A stretch of DNA of 64,000 bases from a virus. This document shows, in pieces, positions 16,448 through 28,986 of the stretch (the stretch's first letter is position 1; each line of letters begins with the position of its first letter). Both the position numbers and the translations under genes were made by a program. The notes under the pieces are model-generated. The model made no database searches and was not told the DNA's origin. It saw only the letters and a program-made list of their open reading frames with translations. The stretch spans positions 224,001 through 288,000 of the IMG/VR virus record IMGVR_UViG_3300045988_179268; one strand, 5' to 3'.

Positions 16448-16485
16448 CCCGAGTCAGCAACAGGCAACCCAGACATCTTAACCGC

Positions 16486-16568: not shown

Positions 16569-16604
16569 ATACCAGGTGTGTGACACAGATAACACAAAAT
16601 CAGG

Positions 16605-16802: not shown

Positions 16803-16833
16803 CGCAACACATCATTAAGATGTGTTCTATATA

Positions 16834-16970
16834 CCTCGCCTGTTGGTGAGATGGGAGAGGTAGTAAAAATAAACGGGTAGGCAACAGTGTTTGTCACGCC
16901 AAAACCTGAAAAGCAGGTTATAGCCACAGGGCAATCTGGGCGCTCCTTGACCGTGCAACAAGGGGTCACC
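16834..16970 (+). ncRNA. divergent scaffold-like module S3
   Basis: Keeps hairpin 1 (CCTCGCCTG..GGGAGAGG), AAATAAACGGG and GGGGTCACC, but the middle differs and no repeat follows. Confidence 0.45.
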
Positions 16971-17030
16971 AAAAATCAAAGCACGGGTATGTTCAACACG
17001 TCAGCATAATTGAGTGCTGTGACCTCGACC

Positions 17031-17174
17031 TGCGAGGGGCGGGGAGGTCGAAAAAATAAATGGGCAGGCGGCTACCAGCTATCCTGTCAAGACCAGGAAG
17101 GCTGACGACAGTCAGCTGGAGGGTTACCGTCTAGTGAAACGCTAGACCCAACTCATATAGAGGAAATCCGGCTC
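17031..17174 (+). ncRNA. scaffold RNA module S4
   Basis: Hairpin 1 GACCTC..GAGGTC, AAATAAATGGG, GTCAAGACCAGGA, GGCTGAC/GTCAGCT, GGAGGGTTACCGT, CTAGTG/CGCTAG. Ends ..CCGGCTC. Confidence 0.7.
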
Positions 17175-17190
17175 AGTATATATCAGGGGT

Positions 17191-17260
17191 CACTTTCCCA
17201 TACACGCGAGGATGGCTCCATAGCGGGATGGTTGAAACCTCCCTACATGCGGGATGGCTC
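17191..17260 (+). CRISPR. two degenerate repeats after S4
   Basis: CACTTTCCCATACACGCGAGGATGGCTC (17191-17218) and CCTCCCTACATGCGGGATGGCTC (17238-17260). Intervening segments are short (16 and 19 nt). Confidence 0.5.
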
Positions 17261-17287
17261 CCGCAACAAAATAATACGAAACCAGGC

Positions 17288-17316
17288 TTGCAAACCACAA
17301 AAACATGTGGTACACT
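17288..17316 (+). promoter_or_regulatory. promoter (TTGCAA-17 nt-TACACT with TGG extension)
   Basis: CTTGCAAACCACAAAAACATGTGGTACACT. The -10 hexamer ends 11 nt before the first base of tRNA(UCA). Confidence 0.7.
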
Positions 17317-17327
17317 GGTTTACATAG

Positions 17328-17398
17328 GCCCATCTAGCTTAATGTAAAGCAACAGTCTTCAAAACTGTGAGATGTCGGTTCAAGTCCGGCGGTGGGTG
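17328..17398 (+). tRNA. tRNA with anticodon TCA (UGA-decoding; suppressor or reassignment tRNA)
   Basis: Acceptor GCCCATC/GGTGGGT (two G-U pairs), D arm GCTT-AATGTA-AAGC (short loop with no GG), anticodon arm ACAGT-CTTCAAA-ACTGT, variable GAGAT, T arm GTCGG-TTCAAGT-CCGGC. 71 nt. Confidence 0.7.
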
Positions 17399-17447
17399 CT
17401 TGCAAGTAACAAAACCGGAGTTCTAGCCGAAAGTGGCGTAACTTGCG

Positions 17448-17529
17448 GCGTGTAATGACCACGAAGGCAAGTGGCGAGCCCAGTTAGAATGGGCACGTAA
17501 TAGTAGGGGTCGGTTCCCTTCTACACGCT
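17448..17529 (+). tRNA. non-canonical tRNA-like element (anticodon-like loop GTTAGAA)
   Basis: Perfect 7-bp acceptor GCGTGTA/TACACGC, hairpin GCCCA-GTTAGAA-TGGGC, T-like arm AGGG-GTCGGTT-CCCT. The D region and junctions do not fit a standard cloverleaf. Confidence 0.3.
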
Positions 17530-17534
17530 CTACA

Positions 17535-17674
17535 CTCCTCGTCTGCGAGAGATTGGGAGAGGAGGATAATAAAAACGGGCGCTAACCGCGTCAAGACCAG
17601 GAAAGCCAACGATAGTCAGCTTGAGGGTCACCGTCTAGTGAAACACTAGACCCAGCCCACGTAAGGGGCGGCTC
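17535..17674 (+). ncRNA. scaffold RNA module S5
   Basis: Full copy ending ACGTAAGGGGCGGCTC. It is fused directly to a 5'-truncated tRNA-like sequence. Confidence 0.7.
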
Positions 17675-17728
17675 AAGAGCAGTGCTTTTACACAGCAAAG
17701 GTCGTGGGTTCAAATCCCTCACGAACCA
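17671..17728 (+). pseudogene. 5'-truncated tRNA-like fragment (Val TAC-like)
   Basis: GCTC-AA-GAGC, then TGCT-TTTACAC-AGCA, then GGTCGTGGGTTCAAATCCCTCACGA. No 5' acceptor strand is present. Its D-stem GCTC is the last 4 nt of S5. Confidence 0.35.
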
Positions 17729-17756
17729 CACTTGGTACCCTTTTATAGGGCATCAA

Positions 17757-17829
17757 GTCTCTTTAGCTCAGATAGTAGAGCGCCCGCCTGAAGAGCGGGA
17801 GGTCGCCAGTGCAAGCCTGGCAGGAGACA
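17757..17829 (+). tRNA. tRNA-Phe (GAA)
   Basis: Acceptor GTCTCTT/AGGAGAC, D arm GCTC-AGATAGTA-GAGC, anticodon arm CCCGC-CTGAAGA-GCGGG, T arm GCCAG-TGCAAGC-CTGGC. Confidence 0.85.
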
Positions 17830-17862
17830 CGTAAGCCCACCTATTTTTTCGGTGGTGCATTA

Positions 17863-18004
17863 CCTCTCGCCTGTGAGAGACGGGAGAGAGTGAAAACGGA
17901 CGGGCGGCTTCGGTTGCCTGTCAAGACCAGGAGAATTAACTTCGGTTAATTTGAGGGTTACCGTCTAGTAAAATACTTAGACCCACCCATGTATGGGAAG
18001 GCTC
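17863..18004 (+). ncRNA. scaffold RNA module S6
   Basis: Full copy with hairpins ATTAAC/GTTAAT and CTAGTA/TACTTAG. Ends ATGTATGGGAAGGCTC. Confidence 0.7.
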
Positions 18005-18037
18005 ATCCAGTCTACAGCTAAGAAAGCGCGCGGTGCA

Positions 18038-18064
18038 GTATTTCTTATATACACGGGATGGCTC
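18038..18064 (+). CRISPR. single degenerate repeat, 33 nt after S6
   Basis: GTATTTCTTATATACACGGGATGGCTC. The spacer 18005-18037 is exactly 33 nt. Confidence 0.55.
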
Positions 18065-18202
18065 TCTTACAGTCTGGTTCCTTTTTTGCGCCCATGTGGG
18101 CTGACTGGGAATTACTTATATGAAGAAAGAAGAGATGTGGCATCACTAACATGCACTGCTTTATCTCTGTTTTTTCAGTGACACAGATAACACAAAATCG
18201 AG

Positions 18203-18232
18203 TTGCAAACCACGAAAAACATGTGGTACACT
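18203..18232 (+). promoter_or_regulatory. promoter (TTGCAA -35, TGGTACACT)
   Basis: GTTGCAAACCACGAAAAACATGTGGTACACT, a paralog of 17288-17316. Confidence 0.7.
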
Positions 18233-18314
18233 TTATATATGAGACGTGAGGGCTTGAAAGAGTCCCCGACGCAAAAGCTCATTGAAAACCTTATAGAGTA
18301 AACTATTTAATCAA
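18233..18314 (+). ncRNA. conserved leader L2 upstream of tRNA-Tyr
   Basis: Homologous to L1 (16635-16718). Confidence 0.3.
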
Positions 18315-18398
18315 GCCGTTGTATCCAAGTGGTCAAAGGAAACTGTCTGTAAAACAGTCGCTATCGAAGCTTCGTGGGTTCGACTCCCTCCGGCGGCA
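18315..18398 (+). tRNA. tRNA-Tyr (GTA)
   Basis: Acceptor GCCGTTG/CGGCGGC (G-U pairs), anticodon arm ACTGT-CTGTAAA-ACAGT, long variable arm, T-loop TTCGACT. Confidence 0.8.
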
Positions 18399-18469
18399 CG
18401 AGACACATTACTAGAATGTGTTTAGCTACATCATCTATACGTGCTATAGTTGTTGCAGTAAATATTTTT

Positions 18470-18540
18470 GGCGTACTAGTTTAGTGGTAAAACCTCAGTC
18501 TTCCAAACTGATGATACGGGTTCGATTCCCGTGTACGCCT
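18470..18540 (+). tRNA. tRNA-Trp (CCA)
   Basis: Acceptor GGCGTAC/GTACGCC, D arm GTTT-AGTGGTA-AAAC, anticodon arm TCAGT-CTTCCAA-ACTGA, T arm ACGGG-TTCGATT-CCCGT. Confidence 0.85.
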
Positions 18541-18544
18541 CTAT

Positions 18545-18683
18545 GCTCCTCGCCTGTGAGAGACGGGAGAGGAGCTAAATCTAAACGGACACTCACGTGT
18601 CAAGACCAGGAGAGTTGGGCAACCTACTCAAGGGTTACCGTCAAAGTAAAGCTTTGGCACGCTCCGCATAAGGTCGATGACTT
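18545..18683 (+). ncRNA. scaffold RNA module S7
   Basis: Begins 5 nt after tRNA-Trp. Short hairpin 2 ACAC/GTGT and hairpin CAAAGT/GCTTTG. Ends GCATAAGGTCGATGACTT. Confidence 0.7.
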
Positions 18684-18751
18684 AGAGTAAGTATCTACAT
18701 GTTCTAAGTCATCGTGCGGGATTCGCGTCTCACTAAATCCTGCGTGTCTAA

Positions 18752-18777
18752 GGATTCTCCTTCTCATTAGAGAGACT
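18752..18777 (+). CRISPR. single highly degenerate repeat
   Basis: GGATTCTCCTTCTCATTAGAGAGACT keeps ATTCTCC and a TCTC/GAGA stem. Confidence 0.35.
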
Positions 18778-18818
18778 ATAGATGCGTTTTACATAATCTG
18801 AAATAACTAACACTTTAA

Positions 18819-18900
18819 GCGCTTGTGGCGGAATTGGCAGACGCGGCAGACTTAGAATCTGTTGTCAGCAGACGTGTGGGTTCGAGTCCCACCAGGCGCA
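18819..18900 (+). tRNA. tRNA-Leu (TAG)
   Basis: Acceptor GCGCTTG/CAGGCGC, anticodon arm GCAGA-CTTAGAA-TCTGT, long variable arm, T arm GTGGG-TTCGAGT-CCCAC. Confidence 0.85.
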
Positions 18901-18930
18901 CTTGGTGTCCACAAGTGCATGTGGGTGCCC

Positions 18931-19052
18931 GCTTCCGTATCCAAGCTAGGTTAAGGGGAGCGTCTTTCATGAGCCTTCTGCACATAACGGCTATGGGAGC
19001 GCTTGCGGTGCATGAGAGTGCCCGCGCGCCGGTTCAAATCCGGTCGGAAGCA
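18931..19052 (+). tRNA. atypical 122-nt tRNA-like RNA
   Basis: Perfect acceptor GCTTCCG/CGGAAGC, T arm GCCGG-TTCAAAT-CCGGT, D-like TCCAAGCTAGGTTAAGGGGA. The interior has two long hairpins and I found no standard 7-nt anticodon loop. Confidence 0.35.
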
Positions 19053-19083
19053 CGTAACGCCACCTACTATGGTGGCTTGTTAC

Positions 19084-19227
19084 TCACCTCGCCTATGAGA
19101 GATGGGAGAGGTGAATAATCTAAACGGACACTAACCATGTCAAGACCAGGAGAACTAGCTTACGCTGGTTAGAGGGTCACCGTCTAACAAAATGTTTAGA
19201 CCCGCCTCGTATTTATGGGGTAGGCTT
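19084..19227 (+). ncRNA. scaffold RNA module S8
   Basis: Full copy with hairpins AACTAGC/GCTGGTT and CTAACA/TGTTTAG. Ends TATGGGGTAGGCTT. No repeat follows. Confidence 0.7.
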
Positions 19228-19327
19228 TCAGCCTCATTAGGTAACCTATTGAGGCACCCTTATTGCAATAGGGGAGCCTTCGGGCTTCTGGCTTTTATCA
19301 CTCATTCTTTTGCGAGATTGAGTGTTG

Positions 19328-19339
19328 GTGTGGTATACT
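19328..19339 (+). promoter_or_regulatory. promoter-like extended -10 (GTGTGGTATACT)
   Basis: Variant of the motif, about 20 nt upstream of tRNA-Leu(TAA). Confidence 0.45.
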
Positions 19340-19358
19340 TATCATGCTTACTCTTTAG

Positions 19359-19438
19359 GCGCTTGTGGCGGAACTGGCAGACGCGGCGGACTTAAAATCC
19401 GCTTCTTCGGAGTGTGGGTTCGAGTCCCACCTGGCGCA
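19359..19438 (+). tRNA. tRNA-Leu (TAA)
   Basis: Acceptor GCGCTTG/CTGGCGC (one T-T mismatch), anticodon arm GCGGA-CTTAAAA-TCCGC, variable arm, T arm GTGGG-TTCGAGT-CCCAC. Confidence 0.8.
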
Positions 19439-19468
19439 CGCAACCACCCTTAACTGGGAGGTTTATAT

Positions 19469-19542
19469 TCCCTTGTAGCTCAATTGGCAGATGCGCCCGA
19501 CTGTTAATCGGGAGGTTACTGGTTCGAGTCCAGTCTGGGGAG
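19469..19542 (+). tRNA. tRNA-Asn (GTT)
   Basis: Acceptor TCCCTTG/CTGGGGA (one mismatch), anticodon arm CCCGA-CTGTTAA-TCGGG, T arm ACTGG-TTCGAGT-CCAGT. Confidence 0.8.
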
Positions 19543-19594
19543 CTTACGTCACTTATGCGTGGCGTTGATACCTTAGCTTTTTTGTTAAGGTTCT

Positions 19595-19670
19595 GGTCTG
19601 TTAGCTCAGTGTTGGTTAGAGCACCGCCCTGTCACGGCGGAGGCCGCGGGTTCGAGCCCCGTACAGACCG
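19595..19670 (+). tRNA. tRNA-Asp (GTC)
   Basis: Acceptor GGTCTGT/ACAGACC, anticodon arm CCGCC-CTGTCAC-GGCGG, T arm GCGGG-TTCGAGC-CCCGT. Confidence 0.9.
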
Positions 19671-19691
19671 CGTATAGTTTTTTTGGCTATG

Positions 19692-19831
19692 CCTCTCGCC
19701 TGTGAGAGACGGGAGAGAGTAAAAACGGACAGGTAGCTTCGGTTACCTGTCAAGACCAGGATAGCGGGGTAACCTGCTTGAGGGTCACCGTCTGACAAAA
19801 TGTTAGACCCAGCCCACGTAGGGGATGGCTC
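19692..19831 (+). ncRNA. scaffold RNA module S9
   Basis: Full copy with hairpins AGCGGG/CCTGCT and CTGACA/TGTTAG. Ends CCCACGTAGGGGATGGCTC. Confidence 0.75.
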
Positions 19832-19864
19832 CTTGGACTCGAAGTTTTGACGAATAGGGAGTCC

Positions 19865-19892
19865 GTTTTCCCAGCACACGCGGGAGTGGCTC
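19865..19892 (+). CRISPR. single repeat, 33 nt after S9
   Basis: GTTTTCCCAGCACACGCGGGAGTGGCTC (28 nt). The spacer 19832-19864 is exactly 33 nt. Confidence 0.65.
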
Positions 19893-19932
19893 ACCGTGAC
19901 CTCCTGTGTGATACAGGTAACATAAAAACGGC

Positions 19933-19962
19933 TTGCATACCATAGAAACTATATGGTACACT
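19933..19962 (+). promoter_or_regulatory. promoter (TTGCAT -35, TGGTACACT)
   Basis: GCTTGCATACCATAGAAACTATATGGTACACT upstream of the Thr-Ala-Lys tRNA block. Confidence 0.65.
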
Positions 19963-20029
19963 TGCTATATATGGTTCGGGGAAACCTGAAAGACCGATAC
20001 GCTATTTCTTAATTGAATGAATTTTTTTT

Positions 20030-20103
20030 GCCTCCTTAGCTCAGTTGGTTAGAGCATCTGTCTTGTAAACAGAGGGTCGCCGGTTCGACTCCGGCAGGAG
20101 GCT
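20030..20103 (+). tRNA. tRNA-Thr (TGT)
   Basis: Acceptor GCCTCCT/AGGAGGC, anticodon arm TCTGT-CTTGTAA-ACAGA, T arm GCCGG-TTCGACT-CCGGC. Confidence 0.9.
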
Positions 20104-20139
20104 CGCTAAAGTAGATAGTTTTACTGTTTGCTTTTATGA

Positions 20140-20212
<73 letters not shown>

Positions 20213-20242
20213 CTCACACGCCTGTTGCAGGTTGTGTGTTAA

Positions 20243-20315
20243 GCGCCTTTAGCTCAGTCGGTAGAGCAGTGGACTTTTAATCCTCGGGTCGCGGGTTCGA
20301 GCCCCGCAGGGCGCA
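20243..20315 (+). tRNA. tRNA-Lys (TTT)
   Basis: Acceptor GCGCCTT/AGGGCGC, anticodon arm GTGGA-CTTTTAA-TCCTC (one mismatch), T arm GCGGG-TTCGAGC-CCCGC. Confidence 0.8.
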
Positions 20316-20552
20316 CGTAGCATGAAGGGATGTAGCTAATCCTTTCGTAATACACCGGATAAACACTATTCAGAAGGTCGTAGGTTAAAATCCTGCCACG
20401 TGCCACATTGCACGTGTAGCTCGGTGTTATAAGAGCGTCTGGACGGTGCCGGTTTAAGCCATACACAGGGGAAGTGACCTACACACTTCCATAGGGGTAG
20501 CGCCCCGGCTGTCTTGTAGGATAAGGGTACCTCTTAGCGGGGGTGCTCTCAT

Positions 20553-20628
20553 GGTCTGTTAGCTCAGTGTTGGTTAGAGCACCGCCCTGTCACGGCGGAG
20601 GTCGCGGGTTCAAGTCCCGTACAGACCG
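20553..20628 (+). tRNA. tRNA-Asp (GTC), second copy
   Basis: Near-identical to 19595-19670. T-loop is TTCAAGT. Confidence 0.9.
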
Positions 20629-20666
20629 CTTATATGGCGCACTGACCGCCTAAATAGTCAGTCTAA

Positions 20667-20740
20667 GCCCTTGTAACTCAGCTGGTTAGAGTGCCGCTCT
20701 GATAAGGCGGATGCCGGTGGTTCAAGTCCACCCAAGGGCA
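20667..20740 (+). tRNA. tRNA-Ile (GAT)
   Basis: Acceptor GCCCTTG/CAAGGGC, anticodon arm CCGCT-CTGATAA-GGCGG, T arm GGTGG-TTCAAGT-CCACC. Confidence 0.9.
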
Positions 20741-20742
20741 CT

Positions 20743-20814
20743 GTGTGTGAAGCCGGATAGCGAGGCGCTTGCTTGTGGCGCAAGTAGTAGCGGGTGCGAT
20801 TCCCGTCACACACC
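20743..20814 (+). tRNA. tRNA-His (GTG)
   Basis: Acceptor GTGTGTG/CACACAC with discriminator C, anticodon arm CTTGC-TTGTGGC-GCAAG, T arm GCGGG-TGCGATT-CCCGT. Confidence 0.8.
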
Positions 20815-20816
20815 CC

Positions 20817-20891
20817 GCTCCCCTAGTTCAGTCTGGATAGAACGCCGTGCTACGAACGCGGAGGTGGCAGGTTCAAATCCTGCGGGGAGCA
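20817..20891 (+). tRNA. tRNA-Arg (ACG)
   Basis: Acceptor GCTCCCC/GGGGAGC, anticodon arm CCGTG-CTACGAA-CGCGG, T arm GCAGG-TTCAAAT-CCTGC. Lies 2 nt after tRNA-His. Confidence 0.9.
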
Positions 20892-20924
20892 CGTAACAGC
20901 ACCTATTATGGTAGTGTGTTATAT

Positions 20925-21080
20925 ACCTCGCCTGTGAGAGACGGGAGAGGTGGTAAATCTAAACGGATAGGTGGCATCGGCTACCTGTCAAGACCAGGAT
21001 GGCGGGGCAACCTGCTTGAGGGTCACCGTCTAGTGAAACACTCAGACCCAACCCACATAAGGGAAAACGTAAGGTGAATC
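20925..21080 (+). ncRNA. scaffold RNA module S10
   Basis: Full copy nearly identical to S1 in its 5' half. The terminal part is extended (..CACATAAGGGAAAACGTAAGGTGAATC). Confidence 0.7.
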
Positions 21081-21121
21081 TATTTTGCGGCTTGACCCGG
21101 TATTAAGCCTAGTCAGGAAGA

Positions 21122-21205
21122 TTTTTCCCTACGCATGTGAGGCTGGCTCTACTCAGCCTAACATGCGTAGGCGACGTTTTCTCCGTACACGCGAGGGGAT
21201 GGCTC
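21122..21205 (+). CRISPR. two repeats after S10
   Basis: TTTTTCCCTACGCATGTGAGGCTGGCTC (21122-21149) and GTTTTCTCCGTACACGCGAGGGGATGGCTC (21176-21205). The 26-nt spacer is largely the reverse complement of the first repeat. Confidence 0.55.
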
Positions 21206-21288
21206 CGGCTAGGATACGCCCTTCAAGGCGGCGCTACTTTCTTTACATACATAGAAAGTCAGCTTTTATCAATATGCTCACAACATAT

Positions 21289-21361
21289 GCCCCCATCGTC
21301 TAGATGGTTAGGATACTACCCTTTCAAGGTAGAGATGCGGGTTCGAGTCCCGTTGGGGGTA
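21289..21361 (+). tRNA. tRNA-Glu (TTC)
   Basis: Acceptor GCCCCCA/TGGGGGT, anticodon arm CTACC-CTTTCAA-GGTAG, T arm GCGGG-TTCGAGT-CCCGT. Confidence 0.85.
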
Positions 21362-21496
21362 CGCAAGCTTCAAGAGTTATATTTGTAGCTTTTGGAAGCT
21401 GGCATGGGGTCATGCTGTTTTTATAGTTATGGTCACAATTTAACCTTTCGTTACATCGAGTAGCGGCTCGCCGTCTTGTTGGTTGCCGCTATTCTT

Positions 21497-21570
21497 ATCC
21501 CAGTAGCTCAGTGGATAGAGCGCCCGCCTCCTAAGCGGGGTCGTCACAGGTTCGACTCCTGTCTGGGATA
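21497..21570 (+). tRNA. tRNA-Arg (CCT)
   Basis: Acceptor ATCCCAG/CTGGGAT, anticodon arm CCCGC-CTCCTAA-GCGGG, T arm ACAGG-TTCGACT-CCTGT. Confidence 0.8.
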
Positions 21571-21604
21571 CTTTTAGGTAAACCTGTTTTTTAGGTTTAC
21601 CGTT

Positions 21605-21677
21605 GCCTCCTTAGCTCAGCGGATAGAGTACCCGATTCCGAGTCGGGTGGTCACAGGTTCGATTCCTGTAGGAGGCG
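21605..21677 (+). tRNA. tRNA-Arg (CCG)
   Basis: Acceptor GCCTCCT/AGGAGGC, anticodon arm CCCGA-TTCCGAG-TCGGG, T arm ACAGG-TTCGATT-CCTGT. Confidence 0.85.
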
Positions 21678-21678
21678 C

Positions 21679-21750
21679 GTCCCCGTGGTCTAATCGGGAG
21701 GATGCCGCTCTCTCAAGGCGGCGATGCGGGTTCGAGTCCCGTCGGGGGTA
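21679..21750 (+). tRNA. tRNA-Glu (CTC)
   Basis: Acceptor GTCCCCG/CGGGGGT, anticodon arm CCGCT-CTCTCAA-GGCGG, T arm GCGGG-TTCGAGT-CCCGT. Lies 1 nt after tRNA-Arg. Confidence 0.8.
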
Positions 21751-21874
21751 CGCTCATGCGCGGCTTTTTGTTGCGTGTGTTGTGGTGACTTTCGGTAGTT
21801 ACCTTTTTTGTACGGCTTGGGCTGGGTTTGGTTTTTCCTCACTTTTGCCTTACTCAGGTTTCTGGTCGTGTTTC

Positions 21875-21947
21875 GCGCTTTTAGCTCAGTTGGTAGAGCA
21901 AGGGACTCTTAATCCCTGGGTCGCGGGTTCGAGCCCCGCAGGGCGCA
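21875..21947 (+). tRNA. tRNA-Lys (CTT)
   Basis: Acceptor GCGCTTT/AGGGCGC, anticodon arm AGGGA-CTCTTAA-TCCCT, T arm GCGGG-TTCGAGC-CCCGC. Confidence 0.9.
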
Positions 21948-21976
21948 CGTAGCACATTCCTTTTGGGTGTGTTTAC

Positions 21977-22128
21977 TCACCTCGCCTGTGAGGGACTGGG
22001 AGAGGTGGCTAATCTAAACGGATGGGTAGCTTTGATTGCCTGTCAAGACCAGGAGAATCTGCCTTTGGTGGGTTTGAGGGTCACCGTCTAATAAAATATT
22101 AGACCCAACCCTGTGCAGGGGATGGCTC
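21977..22128 (+). ncRNA. scaffold RNA module S11
   Basis: Full copy (hairpin 1 variant ..TGTGAGGGACTGGGAGAGG, hairpin CTAATA/TATTAG). Ends TGTGCAGGGGATGGCTC. Confidence 0.75.
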
Positions 22129-22147
22129 GACAAAAAAGTCAGGCGGT

Positions 22148-22175
22148 GTTTTCCCTGTATACGCGGGGATGACTC
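22148..22175 (+). CRISPR. single repeat after S11
   Basis: GTTTTCCCTGTATACGCGGGGATGACTC. It is 19 nt after the S11 end, and 31 nt separate it from the 5' end of tRNA-Arg(TCT). Confidence 0.65.
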
Positions 22176-22206
22176 ACCGCTAATATGTACAATTCCATAC
22201 CTTTTT

Positions 22207-22279
22207 GCCCTAGTAGCTCAGGGGATAGAGCAGTCGCCTTCTAAGCGATTGGTCGCAGGTTCGAATCCTGCCTGGGGCA
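22207..22279 (+). tRNA. tRNA-Arg (TCT)
   Basis: Acceptor GCCCTAG/CTGGGGC, anticodon arm GTCGC-CTTCTAA-GCGAT, T arm GCAGG-TTCGAAT-CCTGC. Confidence 0.85.
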
Positions 22280-22306
22280 CGCTATATGCCTCAAGGTGTG
22301 TCGCAA

Positions 22307-22456
22307 CACCTCGCCTGTGAGGGACTGGGAGAGGTGGTTAATCTAAACGGGTGGGTGGCTTTGGTTGCCTGCCAAGACCAGGAAAGCTGGCTTCGGTCAG
22401 TTTGAGGGTCACCGTCAAAGTAAAACTTTGGCTCATCTACCGCATAAAGTGAATGG
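22307..22456 (+). ncRNA. scaffold RNA module S12
   Basis: Full copy with hairpins AGCTGGC/GTCAGTT and CAAAGT/ACTTTG. The terminal part is S1-like (CTCATCTACCGCATAAAGTGAATGG). Confidence 0.7.
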
Positions 22457-22496
22457 GAAATGTGGGTTGGCGAGGTGTTTATCCTTGTCAATAAGG

Positions 22497-22638
22497 ATTT
22501 TCCCCGTACACGCGGGGATGGCTCCTGGACCCTCAAACTTGCTAGAGTAGAGCACGTATTTTCCCCGTACACGCGGGGATGGCTCTAACGTCAAGCCTAT
22601 TAGCGTTTACGTTTTCCCTTGTATGCGTGGGGTGACTC
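22497..22638 (+). CRISPR. three-repeat mini-array after S12
   Basis: ATTTTCCCCGTACACGCGGGGATGGCTC twice (22497-22524, 22558-22585) with a 33-nt spacer, then GTTTTCCCTTGTATGCGTGGGGTGACTC (22611-22638) after 25 nt. 31 nt separate the last repeat from tRNA-Glu. Confidence 0.75.
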
Positions 22639-22669
22639 ACAATAACCCTTTTATATATTCACAACATAT

Positions 22670-22743
22670 GCCCCCGTGGTCTAATTGGTCAGGATGCCAC
22701 TTTCTCAAGGTGGGTGGTACGGGTTCGAGTCCCGTCGGGGGTA
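22670..22743 (+). tRNA. tRNA-Glu (CTC), second copy
   Basis: Acceptor GCCCCCG/CGGGGGT, anticodon arm CCACT-TTCTCAA-GGTGG, T arm ACGGG-TTCGAGT-CCCGT. Confidence 0.8.
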
Positions 22744-22775
22744 CGTTCATGCGCGGTTTTTGTTGCGTGTGTTTT

Positions 22776-22848
22776 GCGCTTTTAGCTCAGTTGGTAGAGC
22801 AACGGACTCTTAATCCGTGGGTCGCCGGTTCGAGTCCGGCAGGGCGCA
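22776..22848 (+). tRNA. tRNA-Lys (CTT), second copy
   Basis: Acceptor GCGCTTT/AGGGCGC, anticodon arm ACGGA-CTCTTAA-TCCGT, T arm GCCGG-TTCGAGT-CCGGC. Confidence 0.9.
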
Positions 22849-22877
22849 CGTAGCACATTCCTTTTGGGTGTGTTTAC

Positions 22878-23029
22878 TCACCTCGCCTGTGAGGGACTGG
22901 GAGAGGTGGCTAATCTAAACGGATGGGTAGCCTTTGGGTTGCCTGTCAAGACCAGGAAAATTAGCTTAGGCTGATTCGAGGGTCACCGTCTGGCAAAATG
23001 GCAGACCCACCCTTTGTAGGGGGCGGCTC
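22878..23029 (+). ncRNA. scaffold RNA module S13
   Basis: Near-duplicate of S11 in its 5' half. Hairpins AATTAGC/GCTGATT and CTGGCA/TGGCAG. Ends TTGTAGGGGGCGGCTC. Confidence 0.75.
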
Positions 23030-23062
23030 AGTGTTTGAGAATGAGGGTTGCGCCCTCAGCGA

Positions 23063-23076
23063 GTATTTCCCGTAAA
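23063..23076 (+). CRISPR. truncated repeat, 33 nt after S13
   Basis: GTATTTCCCGTAAA matches only the repeat 5' half. The spacer 23030-23062 is exactly 33 nt. Confidence 0.4.
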
Positions 23077-23098
23077 TATAATTACTATTTCACATTGT

Positions 23099-23172
23099 TC
23101 CCTTGTAGCTCAATTGGCAGATGCGCCCGACTGTTAATCGGGAGGTTGTAGGTTCGAGTCCTTCCGGGGGAG
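23099..23172 (+). tRNA. tRNA-Asn (GTT), second copy
   Basis: Acceptor TCCCTTG/CGGGGGA, anticodon arm CCCGA-CTGTTAA-TCGGG, T-loop TTCGAGT. Confidence 0.8.
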
Positions 23173-23188
23173 CTTTTAATATTGTGTT

Positions 23189-23224
23189 ACGCCCTTGCTG
23201 GTTTTTGCCGGTGAGGGCGTTTTT
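23189..23224 (+). terminator. rho-independent terminator closing the tRNA/scaffold region
   Basis: ACGCCCT..AGGGCGT stem followed by TTTT. Confidence 0.65.
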
Positions 23225-23274
23225 GTTGTATAATTGGTGTACCACATATTTTTTAGTTGAAAGGTTTTCATAGA

Positions 23275-24309
23275 ATGTTTGTTTGCGAGGATGTGTCCCC
23301 TGTTGGTTCTGGCAAGGTTCAGTCTATTTCTTTGGGGGAGTCATTTTTGCCTGGTGACGTGATGGATGTATTGAATCCGTCTATTCCGAGTGCGGCGGCG
23401 CGTATGGTATTGATTTATAAGCGTGATGTTGTCTCTGCTGGTGCGCAGTTGGTGGGCGTTTTCACTGTTTCTGCCGACCCTGCTACTTTTGCGGGTGGTG
23501 TTGATGGTCAGGGTATTATTCCAGGTGTTGCCTCTGGTTCGCTTGTTGAGCGTGTCGTTGAGAGTGTTCCTGTGCAGGGTGGTGATTACGCCTCACATGC
23601 GTTGAAGGTTGCGTCCTGGTTGTCTAATTCTGGTGTGCCGCTGGGTTATGGTGGTGATTTGCGCAATGGTTTTGCTTTTACTGCGTTTGAATCTGCTGAG
23701 GGCGCATGTGCTGTGCCTGATGCGTTTGAGTTTTTGGATGCGGCGGGTGTGTCTGTCCCTTGGTATAACGAGGGTAACTATTTCGGGTACACTGTTTCTG
23801 GTGTTAGTAAGATTAGTTCCCTTAAGGGTGTGGGTTCTGTGTTGGGCGACCTTGGTGACGTTGGTGTGGACTCCCGCGCGCTGAGTCAGGGGGTTGATGG
23901 TGCTGGCGACAATGCTTATGTCGCGTGGTTGCTGTGGGGTGTTGATGATGGTGGTCGTGTTGGGGATGTGCATCTTGTGGCTGGTGACCCGACGCTAAAT
24001 GGGTTCCCGACTGTGGGGTTGCCGTTTATTAAGGGCGCTCCTCAGCTTGTGGGTGTCCCGGTTGAGGAGTATGGTTATCGTTTGGTGACGAAAATGTTCA
24101 CTAATTTCACTTCTGTTTTTGTCACTATTAAGTCCCCTTTGTTTAATGCTAATCGTGTTTGTTATGATGCTGGTAAGGGTTTGTATTCTTTGCCTGTTGT
24201 GGTGACTTTGGGGTCTGAGTCGCCATTGTGGGTGCCTGGCGATTTGGGGGCGCGTATGCGCTATGTTAAGGCTGTTTTGGGGCGCGATGGGGCTTTAAAT
24301 ATCTTGTAA
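23275..24309 (+). CDS. G/V-rich hypothetical protein, paralog 1
   Basis: ATG 23275 after GAAAGG (track 23257..24309). The C-terminal motif NxxRxxYDxxxGLYSLPVVV is shared with the next two ORFs. The coding strand is strongly G+T rich, so stop codons are rare in every frame and the ORF length itself is weak evidence. Confidence 0.55.
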   Translation: MFVCEDVSPVGSGKVQSISLGESFLPGDVMDVLNPSIPSAAARMVLIYKRDVVSAGAQLVGVFTVSADPATFAGGVDGQGIIPGVASGSLVERVVESVPVQGGDYASHALKVASWLSNSGVPLGYGGDLRNGFAFTAFESAEGACAVPDAFEFLDAAGVSVPWYNEGNYFGYTVSGVSKISSLKGVGSVLGDLGDVGVDSRALSQGVDGAGDNAYVAWLLWGVDDGGRVGDVHLVAGDPTLNGFPTVGLPFIKGAPQLVGVPVEEYGYRLVTKMFTNFTSVFVTIKSPLFNANRVCYDAGKGLYSLPVVVTLGSESPLWVPGDLGARMRYVKAVLGRDGALNIL

Positions 24310-24474
24310 ATAGCCTTTTTGGGGAGCTTGTCATACTTTTGTGTGGCAGGCTCCTTTTTGTGTGTTTTCCGGGTTTTGGGCGGGTTGGTGTGGTAGACTG
24401 GTGGTGGGGTTGCGTCGGGTCTTGACGTTGCCCCCTTTTTTCTATCTTTTTCTACTATTTTTTTGGAGGTTGTT

Positions 24475-25455
24475 GTGGCTTTTGATTGGTTGAGGGGCAT
24501 TTTTGGTGGTTCTGGTGATGGTGAGCCTGTTGAGGGTGGTGCTTTTAGGGAGTCGGGGGTTTCTGATGCTGATGTGATTGCTGAGTTGGAGGCTTCGTTG
24601 GGTGCGCCGTCTGGTGGTGTTGATGTTTCGCGTCTGGTTAGTTGTGAGTTTGGGTTGCCGGGGCATGTGTTGTTTTTGTTTAAGCCTGTGGGTGGTGGGT
24701 TTGTTTTGGATGGTGTGGTGTGTGTTGGTGTGAGTGGTCGTGGTGTTGGTGGTGTTGGTAATGGTCGTGGGGTGGTTTGTTTTGGGCAGGAGCCTGTGTT
24801 GGAGGTGTTGGGTGGTTCTAGGGTTTATTCTGTGGAGGATAATTTTAGTGAGGTTGGGCGTGGGTTGTATGGTGAGGTTTTGAGTGAGGGGTGTTTGTTT
24901 GTTGGGGTTGGTGAGTCTGGTGGTTTGGATTTGTTGAGGGTTGTTGAGTCGGATGGTGTTGATTTTATTTTGGGTGACCCGTCGTTGGTGGGTTTGGAGG
25001 TGGAGTCTTTTGATGGGGGTGAGTTTGTGTGTGTGATTGCGCATAATGTGCGTGTTGATTTGTCTGCTTCGGTTTCTGTTGGTGAGGCTGTTGGTTCTGT
25101 GGGTGATGTGGGTTCTGTGGCGCGTGAGTATGTTGGTGTTGAGGGTGCTATGGTCGGTTGGTTCTGTTGGTGGGCTTCGGCGGCTGGCGTTGAGTGGGGG
25201 TATGTTTTGGGTGACCCGCGTGGGGGTGGTTCGCCGGTGATGGATGTTCCGCTTGGCGGTATTTCGGGGTTGTTTAGTGGGCTTATTGCTGGTGTTGGCA
25301 GTATTGAGGATGTTGGTGTTAGGGTTGCTGGTTCGTTTAGGAATACTCGTTTCGGTAATGTTGAGTGGGTTGCTCCTTTGTATGATGATGGTCGTGCTTA
25401 TTATGATGAGGCGGCGCAGTTGTATGCGATGCCGGTGGTGACTGTTCTGCATTAG
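24475..25455 (+). CDS. G/V-rich hypothetical protein, paralog 2
   Basis: GTG 24475, 5 nt after GGAGG (track 24463..25455). Ends LYDDGRAYYDEAAQLYAMPVVTV like its neighbours. Extreme G+T composition. Confidence 0.5.
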   Translation: MAFDWLRGIFGGSGDGEPVEGGAFRESGVSDADVIAELEASLGAPSGGVDVSRLVSCEFGLPGHVLFLFKPVGGGFVLDGVVCVGVSGRGVGGVGNGRGVVCFGQEPVLEVLGGSRVYSVEDNFSEVGRGLYGEVLSEGCLFVGVGESGGLDLLRVVESDGVDFILGDPSLVGLEVESFDGGEFVCVIAHNVRVDLSASVSVGEAVGSVGDVGSVAREYVGVEGAMVGWFCWWASAAGVEWGYVLGDPRGGGSPVMDVPLGGISGLFSGLIAGVGSIEDVGVRVAGSFRNTRFGNVEWVAPLYDDGRAYYDEAAQLYAMPVVTVLH

Positions 25456-25577
25456 CGCCTTTACCCGCTTTCGGGGGTATGGGTTTTGCGCTGTGGGGTG
25501 TTAGAATAAGGTGTGTTGCTTGTCCCCTTTTTGGGGTTCGGTGATGCACCTTATTCTTTTTTGTTTTTGGGAGGTTT

Positions 25578-26585
25578 TTGTTGTCTTCGTCGTTCATGAA
25601 GGACCCGAATGTTGCTAGTTCGCCTGTTGATGGTCAGGTGTACAATATTGTTCCTTTGGAGGATTTGAATGAGTTTGACCGGGTGGATACGAGTCATTTC
25701 GTGTCTGAGCCTACGTTGGATTCGTTGGATGGGTTGGCTAATTTTGCGTTAGGTTCATCGTCTGAGTTCCTGTTCTTGTTTGAGGATTTGGACGGGGTTC
25801 CGGTTCTTTCTGGGATTGTGTTTGCGGTGACTACGCCTAACGGTGTTGGTCGAGCTATCTTGCCTGCGCATGACCGTATTGTGTCTAGCGTGTGGGATGA
25901 GGTTTGTAAGCGTTCCTCTTCAACTTCGCGTGAGCGTCTGTCTGTGGCGTGTGCCGAGGTACTGGTTGAGCGTGGCACAGCGTTCATGTCTGCTTATACT
26001 GATGCGTTGCCTATTGGTGTTGCTAGGAAGTTGCGTGGTAAGAATAATGGGCGTGAGGTGACAGCCCAGTATGTGTTGGATAACTATGGTTTGATGCCTC
26101 AAGATGCTGTGAAAGCACATGCTGTTGGGGTGTCTGCTGACTTCATGGTTTCGGATGCGGTGAAGGTTCTTTATCGGAAGGATTCTGAGGCTATTAACCC
26201 GGTGTCTGCGGGTCGTCCTGGGTGGGCGCATGTGGGTTGGTTGCAGTGGCGTATGAGTCCGACTACAGGTCTTGAGTTAGGATTGGGCTTTGGTGCTCCT
26301 TTTGGGGAGGCTGATTCTTTGCCTTACGTGCCGCTGGTTCCCGTCTTTAAAGACACCTTTAAGCGTATGGTTATGGCGTATTCTCCTTCTGAGGGTGCCG
26401 TCGGTGCTACATTTATGTCCATCATTCAGGATGGCACGTTTAAGGGTAACGGTGACGAGTTCACTATTGGTGGCGCACTTTATAATGACGGCAGGTACGC
26501 TTATGATTCCGCTTCGGGGGTTTATGCTATGCCTATTATTATTGAACAGCCGCGCGCCACGGCTAAGGTGTTCATGGTGAACTAG
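25578..26585 (+). CDS. hypothetical protein, paralog 3
   Basis: TTG start after GGGAGG. More ordinary composition. Ends LYNDGRYAYDSASGVYAMPIIIE. Confidence 0.65.
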   Translation: MLSSSFMKDPNVASSPVDGQVYNIVPLEDLNEFDRVDTSHFVSEPTLDSLDGLANFALGSSSEFLFLFEDLDGVPVLSGIVFAVTTPNGVGRAILPAHDRIVSSVWDEVCKRSSSTSRERLSVACAEVLVERGTAFMSAYTDALPIGVARKLRGKNNGREVTAQYVLDNYGLMPQDAVKAHAVGVSADFMVSDAVKVLYRKDSEAINPVSAGRPGWAHVGWLQWRMSPTTGLELGLGFGAPFGEADSLPYVPLVPVFKDTFKRMVMAYSPSEGAVGATFMSIIQDGTFKGNGDEFTIGGALYNDGRYAYDSASGVYAMPIIIEQPRATAKVFMVN

Positions 26586-26813
26586 TAGAAGTGCCAGTTA
26601 AGTGATATGTTTCACACTGGAAATGGTTGTTTTGAAGTGAAATAGCCTTTTGAGTGTGCTAGACTAGTGTTATCCACAAGTGGTGCGAGGATAAACGCCC
26701 TTCGTGCCACTGCTTAGGTGGTAAAAATTATTCATTTTAACCTACTATTTATGCATTGTGGATGACTGTATGCTGGGGAGGCTTTATAGTGCTCTTTTAA
26801 AGCCTCCCCTCTA

Positions 26814-26894
26814 GCGCTTGTGGCGGAATTGGCAGACGCGCCTGGCTCAAAATCAGGTTCCTTTGGAGTGTGGGTTCGAGTCCCACCTGGCGCA
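26814..26894 (+). tRNA. tRNA-Leu (CAA)
   Basis: Acceptor GCGCTTG/CTGGCGC, anticodon arm CCTGG-CTCAAAA-TCAGG, variable arm, T arm GTGGG-TTCGAGT-CCCAC. Isolated from the main cluster. Confidence 0.8.
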
Positions 26895-27013
26895 CTCCTG
26901 TAACGGCGTAAAACCGTGTCCCAAGTCTTTCTGGGATGTGGGTATCAGAAGGGGTTTTTAAAGGTTTCACTCTTCTGTAAACAACATTCATGATTGATGA
27001 ATGCCTTTCTGTT

Positions 27014-27055
27014 GCATGACCCTCTTACCTTCGGGTGAGAGGGTCATGCTGTTTC
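27014..27055 (+). terminator. rho-independent terminator
   Basis: GCATGACCCTC..GAGGGTCATGC stem followed by TGTTT. Confidence 0.7.
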
Positions 27056-27058
27056 CAT

Positions 27059-27088
27059 TTTGCAAGCCTGCTAGATATGTGGTACACT
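27059..27088 (+). promoter_or_regulatory. promoter (TTGCAA -35, ATATGTGGTACACT)
   Basis: Consensus motif upstream of 27142..27648. Confidence 0.65.
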
Positions 27089-27141
27089 TGAGTTAATAGC
27101 TTATTTTGTTTATTAATCTACAAGAAGGAATTACAAACCTT

Positions 27142-27648
27142 ATGCGCCCCTACGCCCGTACCTCTTCCCCTCGCACTCAGCTCCAGTCTCTTAAGGCACC
27201 TGTGTATCGAGAGATGAATAAGGTTAAGAATCGTATTGCTACTGAGAATACCCGCAATAACAATATTCTCATTAATACTCTTACCCCCTTGCTGTTTAAT
27301 TACCCTGAGTCTGAGGAGCGAACTCAGAAGACTCGCCTTCTGTTGGATGCGTCCGGCATTCATACTGCTAATATTGCTGTTCTGAGTAAGAAGAATGAGA
27401 AGTTGATGACTCTCTATGGGCAGTTGGTGACTGCTGAGCATCGAGCTTTGGTTACTCAGGTTTTTGTGGATGGACTCAATGATGAGTTTCAGAAGATTTT
27501 GAAGATGGATGGTGATTTGCGTTCGCCGTCTGCTGAGCTTCGTCGGTCGGTTGAGGATGTGCGCGCGCTAGTTTCTCCCGCTAAGACCAAGTTTAACCTG
27601 CCGCCCGTTCGGGCTTATGTATTGCCGCGTGAGTCTGTTGCGGCGTAA
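27142..27648 (+). CDS. hypothetical protein
   Basis: Track 27106..27648. I moved the start to ATG 27142 after AAGAAGGAA. Confidence 0.7.
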   Translation: MRPYARTSSPRTQLQSLKAPVYREMNKVKNRIATENTRNNNILINTLTPLLFNYPESEERTQKTRLLLDASGIHTANIAVLSKKNEKLMTLYGQLVTAEHRALVTQVFVDGLNDEFQKILKMDGDLRSPSAELRRSVEDVRALVSPAKTKFNLPPVRAYVLPRESVAA

Positions 27649-27765: not shown

Positions 27766-28986
27766 ATGGAAACCACTGTTAAGCGAACTCTCGAAACTCC
27801 GCTGGATGCAACCGTCCGAGGTAATATTATTGCCGCCCGTAAGAATCAGGAAACCGGCACCGAATTTTACAACCTGTCTGCATATTACAAGGAACTGCTT
27901 GGGTTCCCTTATGCTTTTTCTACCCCGTCGCCACAGCATGTCGTTATTGACGAGAATCATTACCGCACTACAACTCTTAGCCCCCTAGATAGTGCGACTG
28001 TAGAGCATCTGACCCTGACTGCTTCCGAGAAGACCCCTGTCATTATCGAGGGCGTAGCTATCACTGGTCAGTATGTTGTAGGTTCAACTGGTGCTGTTCA
28101 CAGTCTGGTTGATTTGGGTAGTGTGGATGAGAACTACCTTATTGGCACTGGTCGTAGCATCTTCTATGCGCCGGTTAAGACCAAGGTCTTCTATTCGGTT
28201 GGTAACCTTGCGGCGAAGTATGGTCACCTGGGGGGCGTTGCAATGATTAACACTCTTGTGACGATGTACCGCGACTCCCACCCTGGCTATAAGAACGCTA
28301 TTGAGAAGGGTGAGTTGGAGGATTTTATTAAGTTTGCGGAGGCTCAGCCTAAGGGTGCCCGCGCTTTGGCTCTAAATGCTCCTAAGAGTGATGAGCCGCC
28401 TGCCGATTTCACTCTAGTCCCTTCCCTTGATGGCGCTGTTGTTGATAACCCTGCCGTGGTTTACAGTAATGAGCTTCTTTGTCGCTCCCTGTACCTTTCT
28501 CCTGAGCGTCACCGCGCCCTGGGTGGTACTGGTAAGCTCCCCGTATTCCTTGCCGCTGATGTCCGCCCTCGCGTAGAGGTGCTATTGAAGGCGGCGGGCC
28601 GTTCGCTGACTTATGATTTTGCGTGGCGTAAGGGTGTGCCGACTTCTCCGCTGTACACGGCAGAGCAGTACACTATGATTCGCTCTTGGATTCGCGCTGA
28701 GGGCGACAAGAAAAAGCCGTCTGATGAGTGGGTTGAACAGGCACGCGAGGTTTTCCCTGCCACTAAGCCGACCACCATGTATGCTTTGAGCCGACCCTTG
28801 CGCACTATTGTCGTGAATCAGGGTGAGGATATTGTGGTTGATGCCATTAAGAAGCATAAGGCTGAGATGGTGAAGATTGTCCGATTCAATAGTAAGGGCG
28901 TGGAGCCTATTAAGCTCCCTAGCTTGCTGTACACCAAGGAAACCGCTGATGCTCTTATGGGGGAGCTGACAGGTAAGGGTATCTAG
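27766..28986 (+). CDS. hypothetical protein
   Basis: Long ORF with RBS AAGGAGA. Promoter variant AATATGTGATATACT at 27668-27681. Confidence 0.8.
   Translation: METTVKRTLETPLDATVRGNIIAARKNQETGTEFYNLSAYYKELLGFPYAFSTPSPQHVVIDENHYRTTTLSPLDSATVEHLTLTASEKTPVIIEGVAITGQYVVGSTGAVHSLVDLGSVDENYLIGTGRSIFYAPVKTKVFYSVGNLAAKYGHLGGVAMINTLVTMYRDSHPGYKNAIEKGELEDFIKFAEAQPKGARALALNAPKSDEPPADFTLVPSLDGAVVDNPAVVYSNELLCRSLYLSPERHRALGGTGKLPVFLAADVRPRVEVLLKAAGRSLTYDFAWRKGVPTSPLYTAEQYTMIRSWIRAEGDKKKPSDEWVEQAREVFPATKPTTMYALSRPLRTIVVNQGEDIVVDAIKKHKAEMVKIVRFNSKGVEPIKLPSLLYTKETADALMGELTGKGI

Follow-up and report, generated by a model that had tools for sequence, protein, structure and literature searches.

The 64,000-nucleotide (nt) stretch analysed here, called the window throughout, is part of the virus record IMGVR_UViG_3300045988_179268 (positions 224,001 to 288,000). 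Its carrier is a ~300-kb jumbo-phage-like element of the human mouth that is otherwise compositionally balanced, at 50% GC. The window holds 27 transfer RNA (tRNA) genes, 25 of which form an array at 16.7-23.2 kb. The array is followed by three paralogous protein genes, which we call P1, P2 and P3, by a tRNA-Leu(CAA) gene and by two further protein genes (table 1). A preliminary description of this DNA, made by reading its letters, had pointed to a block of ~2.2 kb at 23250-25460 as unusually rich in G and T on the plus strand. We asked how far this skew extends, how old it is and what could maintain it.

Table 1. Features of the G/T-rich genes and their surroundings (window coordinates; G/T as fraction of sites).
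Feature	Position	Strand	Remarks
C34 tRNA cluster: Arg(CCT), Arg(CCG), Glu(CTC) x2, Lys(CTT) x2	21497..22849	+	directly upstream of the block; read only G-ending codons
Terminator after tRNA-Asn (23189-23220), overlapping sigma-70-like P1 promoter TTGCCG-18-TATAAT (23205-23234)	23189..23234	+	
P1, first paralog, 344 amino acids (aa)	23275..24309	+	G/T at codon positions 1/2/3 = 0.72/0.53/0.84
Intrinsic terminator after P1 (24321-24356), then extended -10 motif TGTGGTAGACT (24389-24399) before P2	24321..24399	+	
P2, second paralog, 326 aa, the most extreme	24475..25455	+	G/T at codon positions 1/2/3 = 0.82/0.64/0.97
Antisense open reading frame, 336 codons, codon-aligned frame	24442..25452	-	opposite P2
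Intrinsic terminator after P2, 18-bp stem then T-run	25503..25570	+	-31.8 kcal/mol, z -6.6
P3, third paralog, 334-335 aa	25578..26585	+	G/T at codon positions 1/2/3 = 0.65/0.47/0.82
tRNA-Leu(CAA) between skewed genes	26814..26895	+	reads TTG, the commonest Leu codon in the block; no skew in the tRNA gene
Terminator after tRNA-Leu (27014-27049), then promoter TTGCAA...TGTGGTACACT (27060-27088) for the next skewed gene	27014..27088	+	
Small gene, 162-180 aa, not related to the P family	27160..27648	+	third-position G/T 0.79, positions 1 and 2 normal
406-aa gene, not related to the P family	27766..28986	+	third-position G/T 0.69

Across the window, the G+T fraction of 500-nt windows averaged 0.497 (standard deviation 0.074). 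By far the strongest peak lay at ~23.0-26.5 kb, with a maximum of 0.84 at 24501-25000, and outside 23-26.5 kb no 500-nt window exceeded 0.62. The skew is therefore well beyond the range of the surrounding DNA, as had been proposed, and the sample counts given for it were reproduced (55 G/T among 60 nt at 24721-24780; 39 A/C among 60 nt at 15601-15660). The overall figure of about 90% G+T was too high: 23250-25460 measured 75.1%, and P2 alone approaches 90%, with 81% overall and 97% at third codon positions. Across the block the GC content is about 50%, as in the surroundings, with a GC skew of up to +0.78 and an AT skew down to -0.68. In all three P genes the bias is greatest at third codon positions, giving a preponderance of NNK codons. 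At these positions the affected zone is larger than the block first delimited, since it continues through the two downstream genes to 28986 before settling at ~0.5. As had been noted, the skew fades across P3; the third-position level is even within genes and steps at gene ends, with no gradient. A is depleted more than C throughout, A3/G3 being lowered 8- to >90-fold and C3/T3 4- to 20-fold. Outside the coding regions, the spacer at 21752-21874 is 74% G+T, confirming a skew reported for this linker, and the spacer between P1 and P2 (24321..24399) is 76%. The spacers of the tRNA array carry no skew (0.46-0.57 G+T), except for a few short T-rich ones.

P2 shows what this bias does to a gene. 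Its start codon is GTG, preceded by GGAGG. None of its 326 codons ends in A and only nine end in C, so that GAG outnumbers GAA 24:0 and AAG outnumbers AAA 1:0, TTG occurs 23 times, and T-ending codons prevail over C-ending ones in two-fold boxes (TTT 15:2, GAT 18:2, TAT 8:0). Glycine (19.6%) and valine (17.5%) together make up 37% of the protein, while lysine (0.3%), threonine (0.6%), glutamine (0.6%), asparagine (1.5%) and isoleucine (2.1%) are rare. The preliminary description had ascribed such G/V-rich, K/N/Q/T/I-poor proteins to the plus strand of the block as a whole; this applies to P2, whereas the composition of P1 and P3 is shifted only moderately. The long reading frame seen on the opposite strand exists. 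It is explained by the absence from P2 of sense TTA, CTA and TCA, which antisense stop codons need. We rejected an antisense gene opposite P2; no comparable long frame lies opposite P1 or P3.

P1, P2 and P3 are true yet distant paralogs, with 27-31% identity (BLASTP E 1e-7 to 2e-9) over their C-terminal 100-160 residues and a conserved C-terminal end, '...LY.DGR..YD...LY.MPVV'. The paralogy first suggested thus stood, but the copies proved too distant for polarising nucleotide substitutions between them, and we used orthologs instead. P3 is the ancestral copy of the family. A profile search of 1.8 billion representatives returned just ten members, and in protein searches the family occurred only on metagenomic contigs of 290-333 kb. 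The P genes had no match among INPHARED phage records, at nucleotide or protein level, or in IMG/VR, and the skewed genes had none in Pfam, PHROGs, NCBIfam or PDB sequences. All P2 homologs found were at least 93% identical. Homology between the three skewed gene families was rejected, and the AlphaFold model of P3 was poor (predicted local distance difference test score, 47.6). The ratio of non-synonymous to synonymous substitution rates (dN/dS) was 0.11-0.16 for P3, 0.35 for P1 (with the L009 ortholog) and 0.47-0.56 for P2, the last mainly through a low dS. These ratios below one, together with intact reading frames, indicate that the P genes are functional and under purifying selection. The 406-aa gene, with a dN/dS of 0.07-0.08, is under purifying selection too.

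The relatives of the window fall into three clades. Clade A comprises the window and contigs L001, L002, L003, L009 and L010 and carries P1-P3, with only a remnant of P1 in L001. Clade B (L004, L006 and L011-L014) has a single P3 ortholog of 59% identity, and clade C (L015 and L016) a single P1-like gene, P0021. Third-position G/T was 0.84-1.0 in L001, L009, L010, clade B (L004, L006, L011-L014) and clade C (L015), and 0.84-0.87 in the clade-B P3 orthologs. In all three clades the conserved skew covers the P gene or genes after the tRNA array and a gene of 406-411 aa after the tRNA-Leu(CAA), whose position is conserved in all clades. This 406-411-aa gene, with 0.86-0.87 in clades B and C, shows the bias at third positions only (0.52/0.45 at positions 1/2), and its amino-acid composition is normal. 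The gene that follows it (~200 aa) is unskewed in the relatives (third-position G/T 0.46-0.53). The skew is common to orthologs with saturated silent sites, which shows that the bias was kept over a time in which silent sites turned over many times.

The same or near-identical sequence was present in independent ENA, JGI, NCBI (Nanopore and Illumina) and Logan assemblies, and four independent contigs encode the exact P3 protein of the window. One relative, BNJU01003487, comes from a long-read study of saliva (Yahara et al. 2021, PMC7782811). Many saliva metagenomes carry these elements, and the protein clusters concerned count 150-220 member sequences. An identity of the carrier with 'Inocles' was rejected, as these have 24-32% GC (PMC12340149). 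The recurrence of the skew at the same position and in the same gene families, in three clades and in independent assemblies, indicates that it is real, inherited and old. Composition alone would also suit a recent hypermutation burst of the APOBEC or ADAR kind, a foreign insert, or a sequencing or assembly artefact, and the preliminary description had raised hypermutation or editing and foreign or inverted acquisition among its explanations. We consider this group of accounts scarcely credible. The agreement of assemblies and the shared position in three diverged clades contradict it, and so do intact reading frames with dN/dS below one (0.11-0.56). Silent differences between relatives are mostly exchanges of G and T rather than the transitions that hypermutation implies, no mobile-element boundaries surround the block, its GC content is that of its surroundings, and an inversion would not place G and T on the sense strand.

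Step-like changes at gene ends also bear on a replication-origin signature, in which the block would be an origin or single-stranded initiation zone with the plus strand leading rightward and lagging leftward. The cumulative GC skew does climb steeply across 18-27 kb, and average third-position G/T is ~0.43 in the genes left of the tRNA array (1-16000) and ~0.55 in those to the right (29000-64000), a shift that may reflect either a landmark of replication or the border between two gene modules. All these genes, however, lie on the plus strand, so the shift is inseparable from gene content. The profile drops abruptly at gene ends with no gradient over distance, and non-coding RNA genes and spacers inside the zone are unskewed. 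An origin is thus a very improbable source of the skew.

Strong intrinsic terminators follow tRNA-Asn, P1 and P2, so that P1, P2 and P3 each form their own transcription unit. The window contains 23 copies of the extended -10 motif TGTGNTANACT, where 0.65 would be expected; 22 lie on the plus strand, and TTGCAA is often present ~17 nt upstream of the motif (for example at 2776, 15510, 16624, 17306, 18222, 27078, 29049, 36618, 47940, 51483 and 55097). It is probably the main promoter class of the element, and its abundance suggests a host RNA polymerase that uses TRTG-type extended -10 promoters. It precedes skewed and unskewed genes alike, including the frame at 15532-15996, where third-position G/T is 0.23.

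This layout matters for a strand-specific mutation or repair bias tied to transcription, in which the non-template strand, exposed in the transcription bubble or in R-loops, is deaminated, or the template is preferentially repaired. Silent and non-coding sites would in either case move towards G/T, and the proteins would follow as far as they tolerate it. An excess of G+T on the coding strand from transcription is known in bacteria, in phage T7 and in mammals, and the direction and strand of the skew here match, the skewed genes all being plus-strand genes with a G/T-rich sense strand. Several observations nevertheless make this account, which ranks second among those considered, somewhat unlikely. 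Depletion of A over C is the opposite of what the kinetics of spontaneous deamination give. Genes with the same promoter motif are unskewed or skewed the opposite way, and the tRNA-array spacers are unskewed. Nor is a whole transcription unit covered: the untranslated regions (UTRs) of 27160-27648, 27766-28986 and their orthologs have 0.45-0.57 G+T, being structured, conserved and perhaps functionally constrained, and the 406-411-aa gene has an A-rich 5' UTR. In clades B and C the P genes also escape the skew over their last ~60 codons, where third-position G/T falls to 0.35-0.65; in L006 the change from G/T-ending to C-ending codons is abrupt and lies inside the gene, near position 10845 and ~60 codons upstream of its stop. 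We know of no transcription-associated skew of such size.

Mutation bias and selection also differ in the substitutions they predict. Between the window and L009, the third positions of P2 differ by 0 A/G, 6 C/T and 38 G/T, against 17-37 A/G, 35-65 C/T and 3-12 G/T in flanking genes. We dropped this pairwise depletion of transitions as proof of selection, because at a 97% G/T equilibrium it is low under either model. We then polarised changes on the window and L001 branches with L009 as outgroup. Exchanges between G and T amounted to 0.025 per keto site in P2 and 0.02-0.03 in its neighbours, so the clock of P2 is normal. Changes of G>A or T>C were 6-15 times rarer in P2, at 0.012 per site compared with 0.075 in P3 and 0.09-0.21 in flanking genes. 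By our calculation, a roughly sevenfold deficit of A/C-creating changes is what mutation-selection-drift predicts for ~3% A/C, with a scaled selection of ~3. The internal branch between the clade-A subclades carried 27 G/T, 2 C/T and 0 A/G differences in P2 and 7 G/T and 25 transition differences in P3. Polarisation, which the preliminary description had proposed as a test for an excess of A>G and C>T, revealed none on the recent P2 or P3 branches.

In clade-A P3 the rate of A/C>G/T was not raised (5/54 vs 21/280; P2 has just three such sites), and the per-site transition rates of A/C>G/T and G/T>A/C were equal on recent branches. The P3 skew is decaying in clade A. Young variants mostly ran from G/T to A/C (36 vs 13 in clade B, 34 vs 6 in clade-A P3), as expected if such variants arise freely and are later lost. 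The density of transition polymorphism at four-fold sites equalled that of the flanks (0.104 vs 0.116), a point in favour of mutation bias. Mutation bias alone would need A>G and C>T to be raised ~75- to 200-fold in P2, yet these changes are at baseline in P3, 120 bp downstream. It would also need ~80-fold faster reversion, unlike the silent C's that persist across lineages: the sharing of those at P2 codons 8, 85 and 293 agrees with the phylogeny, and those at codons 168 and 247 are fixed. Private A/C variants in P2 numbered 4-6, where we calculated at least 15 for mutation bias.

Two observations on silent sites of P2 may be added. Both fixed C's lie in the nonamer GGTGACCCG, which encodes G-D-P and occurs at 23980-23990 in P1 and at 24964-24974 and 25201-25211 in P2; its synonymous C (GAC) is fixed in 4/4 clade-A genomes, and the two in P2 are the sole fixed silent C's of that gene. 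In addition, five silent T>C changes private to the window genome fall within 50 codons of P2 (codons 227-275; 25150-25300), and these may reflect a small recombination patch or a local relaxation.

The strongest and most conserved signal lies at third positions, and the C34 and A34 tRNAs near the block match its G- and T-ending codons. We therefore considered translational codon selection alone, in which NNG and NNU codons are used for the element's own C34, A34 and G34 tRNAs, possibly under loss of U34 tRNAs to host anticodon nucleases during infection. The lack of A-ending codons in P2 fits, as do the adjoining C34 tRNAs for Lys, Glu, Arg (two) and Leu and the tRNA-Ala(AGC) found near the skewed genes in clades B and C (L004 9344-9421, L006 9346-9423, L015 5228-5306). 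In clade B this tRNA-Ala(AGC) is the last tRNA ahead of the G/T-rich gene. A34 in tRNA-Ala(AGC) is unusual for bacteria and phages. A gene for an Rnl1-type RNA ligase nearby is consistent too. Codon selection leaves unexplained, however, the preference for T over C in two-fold boxes, where one G34 tRNA reads both, the shift at codon positions 1 and 2, and the G/T-rich spacers of the P cluster. As the sole cause it is improbable.

We tentatively favour, at slightly short of an even chance, a sustained, gene-specific constraint, that is selection, against A and C on the sense strand or the messenger RNA (mRNA). Weak selection would act at every site of this strand, with a scaled coefficient of ~3 for P2 and 1.5-2 for the others, and the bias would not be kept by a flood of A>G and C>T mutations. 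The amino-acid composition would follow the nucleotide constraint where the protein tolerates it, which would account for the Gly/Val-rich P2, and the adjoining C34 and A34 tRNAs of the element would serve the resulting G- and T-ending codons. As to its purpose, an mRNA free of A and C might be a poor substrate for attack that depends on these bases. Candidate attackers could include Rho, which needs C-rich, G-poor RNA, sequence-specific endoribonuclease toxins, and enzymes that target the exocyclic amino group of A or C; another candidate would be decoding that depends on U34 tRNAs, which anticodon nucleases remove. Expression of the skewed genes might then continue after the cell has set off its defences. 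Selection for G/U-rich RNA had been listed in the preliminary description, and of its options it fits the data best, although no selective agent was identified by the analysis.

That lack counts against constraint by selection, and so do several further points. We know of no system that needs avoidance of both A and C. The P2 mRNA shows no exceptional lack of structure and holds no motif beyond its composition, which leaves two simple functional readings unsupported. Deamination chemistry would produce just this direction of skew, with A>G and C>T on the non-template strand. The non-coding spacers of the P1-P3 cluster, too, are rich in G+T (69-85%) and change mostly by exchange of G and T; a purely codon-level explanation therefore fails for them, and mutation bias accommodates them. 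Per C site, C>T in the clade-B 409-aa gene was ~3.5-fold above the flanks (11/43 vs 31/429), and A>G plus C>T was raised ~3-fold when this gene was pooled with P3o (13/66 vs 49/672); G>A and T>C singletons there were at the flank rate, which fits mutation bias equally. Polymorphism between G and T at four-fold sites was raised 1.8-fold in clade-A P2 and 4.6-fold in clade B (p = 0.003), as mutation bias predicts through the two-step paths T>A>G and G>C>T. The comparison draws on four to six taxa with evident recombination, as gene trees differ, and the polarised counts are small. Finally, the selection and mutation models share the same equilibrium and differ in turnover rate alone, which is weakly measured here.

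A bolder extension of selection against A and C would have the element deliberately write a few early genes in almost only two letters (G/U). Their mRNAs, or the sense strand of their DNA, would thereby evade host factors that require A or C, and the C34 and A34 tRNAs would translate them. The factors evaded would be Rho, endoribonuclease toxins specific for A/C, deaminases or ADP-ribosyltransferases directed at amino groups, and decoding by U34 tRNAs. We regard this as doubtful.

A number of simpler targets were tried and rejected. The mean minimum free energy of the P2 mRNA was -30 kcal/mol per 150 nt compared with -39 +/- 9 for the window, and the P1 and P3 mRNAs were more structured than the window average, so that an unstructured mRNA does not explain the block. 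No k-mer was enriched beyond position-specific composition, which disposes of a repeated motif. Two-tetrad G-quadruplex motifs numbered 6 against 7.3 in shuffled sequences, and the E. coli Chi site was not enriched. Avoidance of palindromes was rejected as the target because palindrome density was near normal in P1 and P3. The P genes do not appear to be the target of a diversity-generating retroelement, as no segment of theirs is repeated in 15900-27200; no reverse transcriptase was found among the 30 window reading frames scanned.

The tRNA array holds further features. An Rfam search of 15.5-29.5 kb returned tRNAs only. The tRNA at 17328-17399 has the anticodon TCA (labelled 'SeC' by ARAGORN), and a tRNA-Trp(CCA) occupies the corresponding position in L001 and L009 and in clades B and C; judged by sequence, the anticodon of a Trp tRNA appears to have changed so that it could possibly read UGA, in the manner of an opal suppressor. 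About 13 copies of a ~150-nt element (CCTCGCCTGTGAGAGACGGGAGAGG...AAACGG...GTCAAGACCAGGA...GAGGGTCACCGTC) are scattered among the tRNA genes at 16050-23010 (for example 16049-16184, 17863-17994, 19692-19811, 20926-21061, 21985-22116, 22314-22445 and 22860-23014). The element also flanks the skewed genes in clades B and C, had no match in Rfam, and could be a structured RNA or a TnpB-associated RNA. Repeats of 28-29 nt resembling those of clustered regularly interspaced short palindromic repeats (CRISPR) of type I-E (TTTTCCCCGTACACGCGGGGATGGCTC) occur in the array singly or as mini-arrays of 2-3 repeats with ~32-nt spacers (16232-16260, 16305-16333, 17190, 19864, 21175, 22147, 22496-22524 and 22557-22585; in L006, 9650-9840). 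These may be RNA anti-CRISPR decoys or a mini-array; a search of GTDB genomes gave no matching array, only single chance matches.

Elsewhere in the window, the open reading frame at 2859-4061 matches T4-type RNA ligase 1 (PF09511, E 4e-13; phrog_562, E 3e-34). With the tRNA array close by, this Rnl1-type enzyme may serve tRNA repair against anticodon nucleases, and the two together suggest a contest over tRNAs and translation in this system. TnpB/Cas12f-like frames or fragments (OrfB_IS605, TNB domain) lie at 6230-7384, 15532-15996 and 40110-41711 and in L001 at 1-1314; some are oppositely biased, with third-position G/T of 0.15-0.25 and C3 up to 0.56, and TnpB genes flank the tRNA array in several relatives. 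The gene at 10113-11960 encodes a predicted secreted or anchored protein of 615 aa, in which a long linker rich in Pro, Thr and Glu joins a hydrophobic segment at the N-terminus to a membrane anchor at the C-terminus. Third-position G/T in the linker is 0.70-0.78, which yields a long spurious antisense reading frame (11127-11981).

Strand and codon biases are usually small and genome-wide, whereas here a handful of genes in a balanced 50%-GC genome reach 84-100% G/T at silent sites, a property that has outlasted gene duplication and the separation of three clades. If the skew is held by selection, it points to a pressure on every A and C of particular transcripts; mobile elements would then have a novel means of protecting key messages, and such genes could be found by a simple sequence signature. 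If it is held by mutation, no stronger local mutational asymmetry between transcription strands would be known from any DNA genome, and an oral bacterium would be expected to have a targeted process of deamination or repair. Should the two-letter reading be true, it would represent a compositional anti-defence strategy not described before.

Strand asymmetry and codon bias are both known phenomena; for a local, gene-specific and clade-conserved silent G/T of 84-100% in a balanced genome, we found no precedent in the literature. The closest parallels each share part of the pattern. In vertebrate mitochondrial DNA, whose heavy strand is G+T-rich through deamination while single-stranded, one strand has lost amino bases in favour of keto bases, most strongly at silent sites and with amino acids dragged along, as in the block. 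The mitochondrial skew is genome-wide and graded by the time spent single-stranded, whereas that of the block spans ~5 kb and is step-like per gene; the block is also more extreme (97% vs ~75-80%), with A depleted over C and an apparently slow turnover of silent A and C. Transcription-associated asymmetry, seen as C>T on the strand that is not transcribed in E. coli and T7 and as surplus G+T in mammalian transcripts, likewise gives a G+T excess on the sense strand, but known effects are of a few per cent, while that of the block is near-complete and absent from neighbours with the same motif and from the tRNA spacers. Immunoglobulin class-switch or R-loop regions resemble the block in having kilobases of G-rich non-template strand within a transcribed unit. 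Switch regions, however, are non-coding repeats targeted by AID, whereas the block consists of conserved coding genes with no repeat unit and no excess of G-quadruplexes, and T is enriched in it as G is. With codon bias under mutation-selection-drift, as described by Akashi, the block shares the maximum at silent sites, young unfavoured variants that do not accumulate, and tRNAs that match the codons; unlike such bias, it favours G and T in every codon box, T over C included, and extends to spacers and to codon positions 1 and 2.

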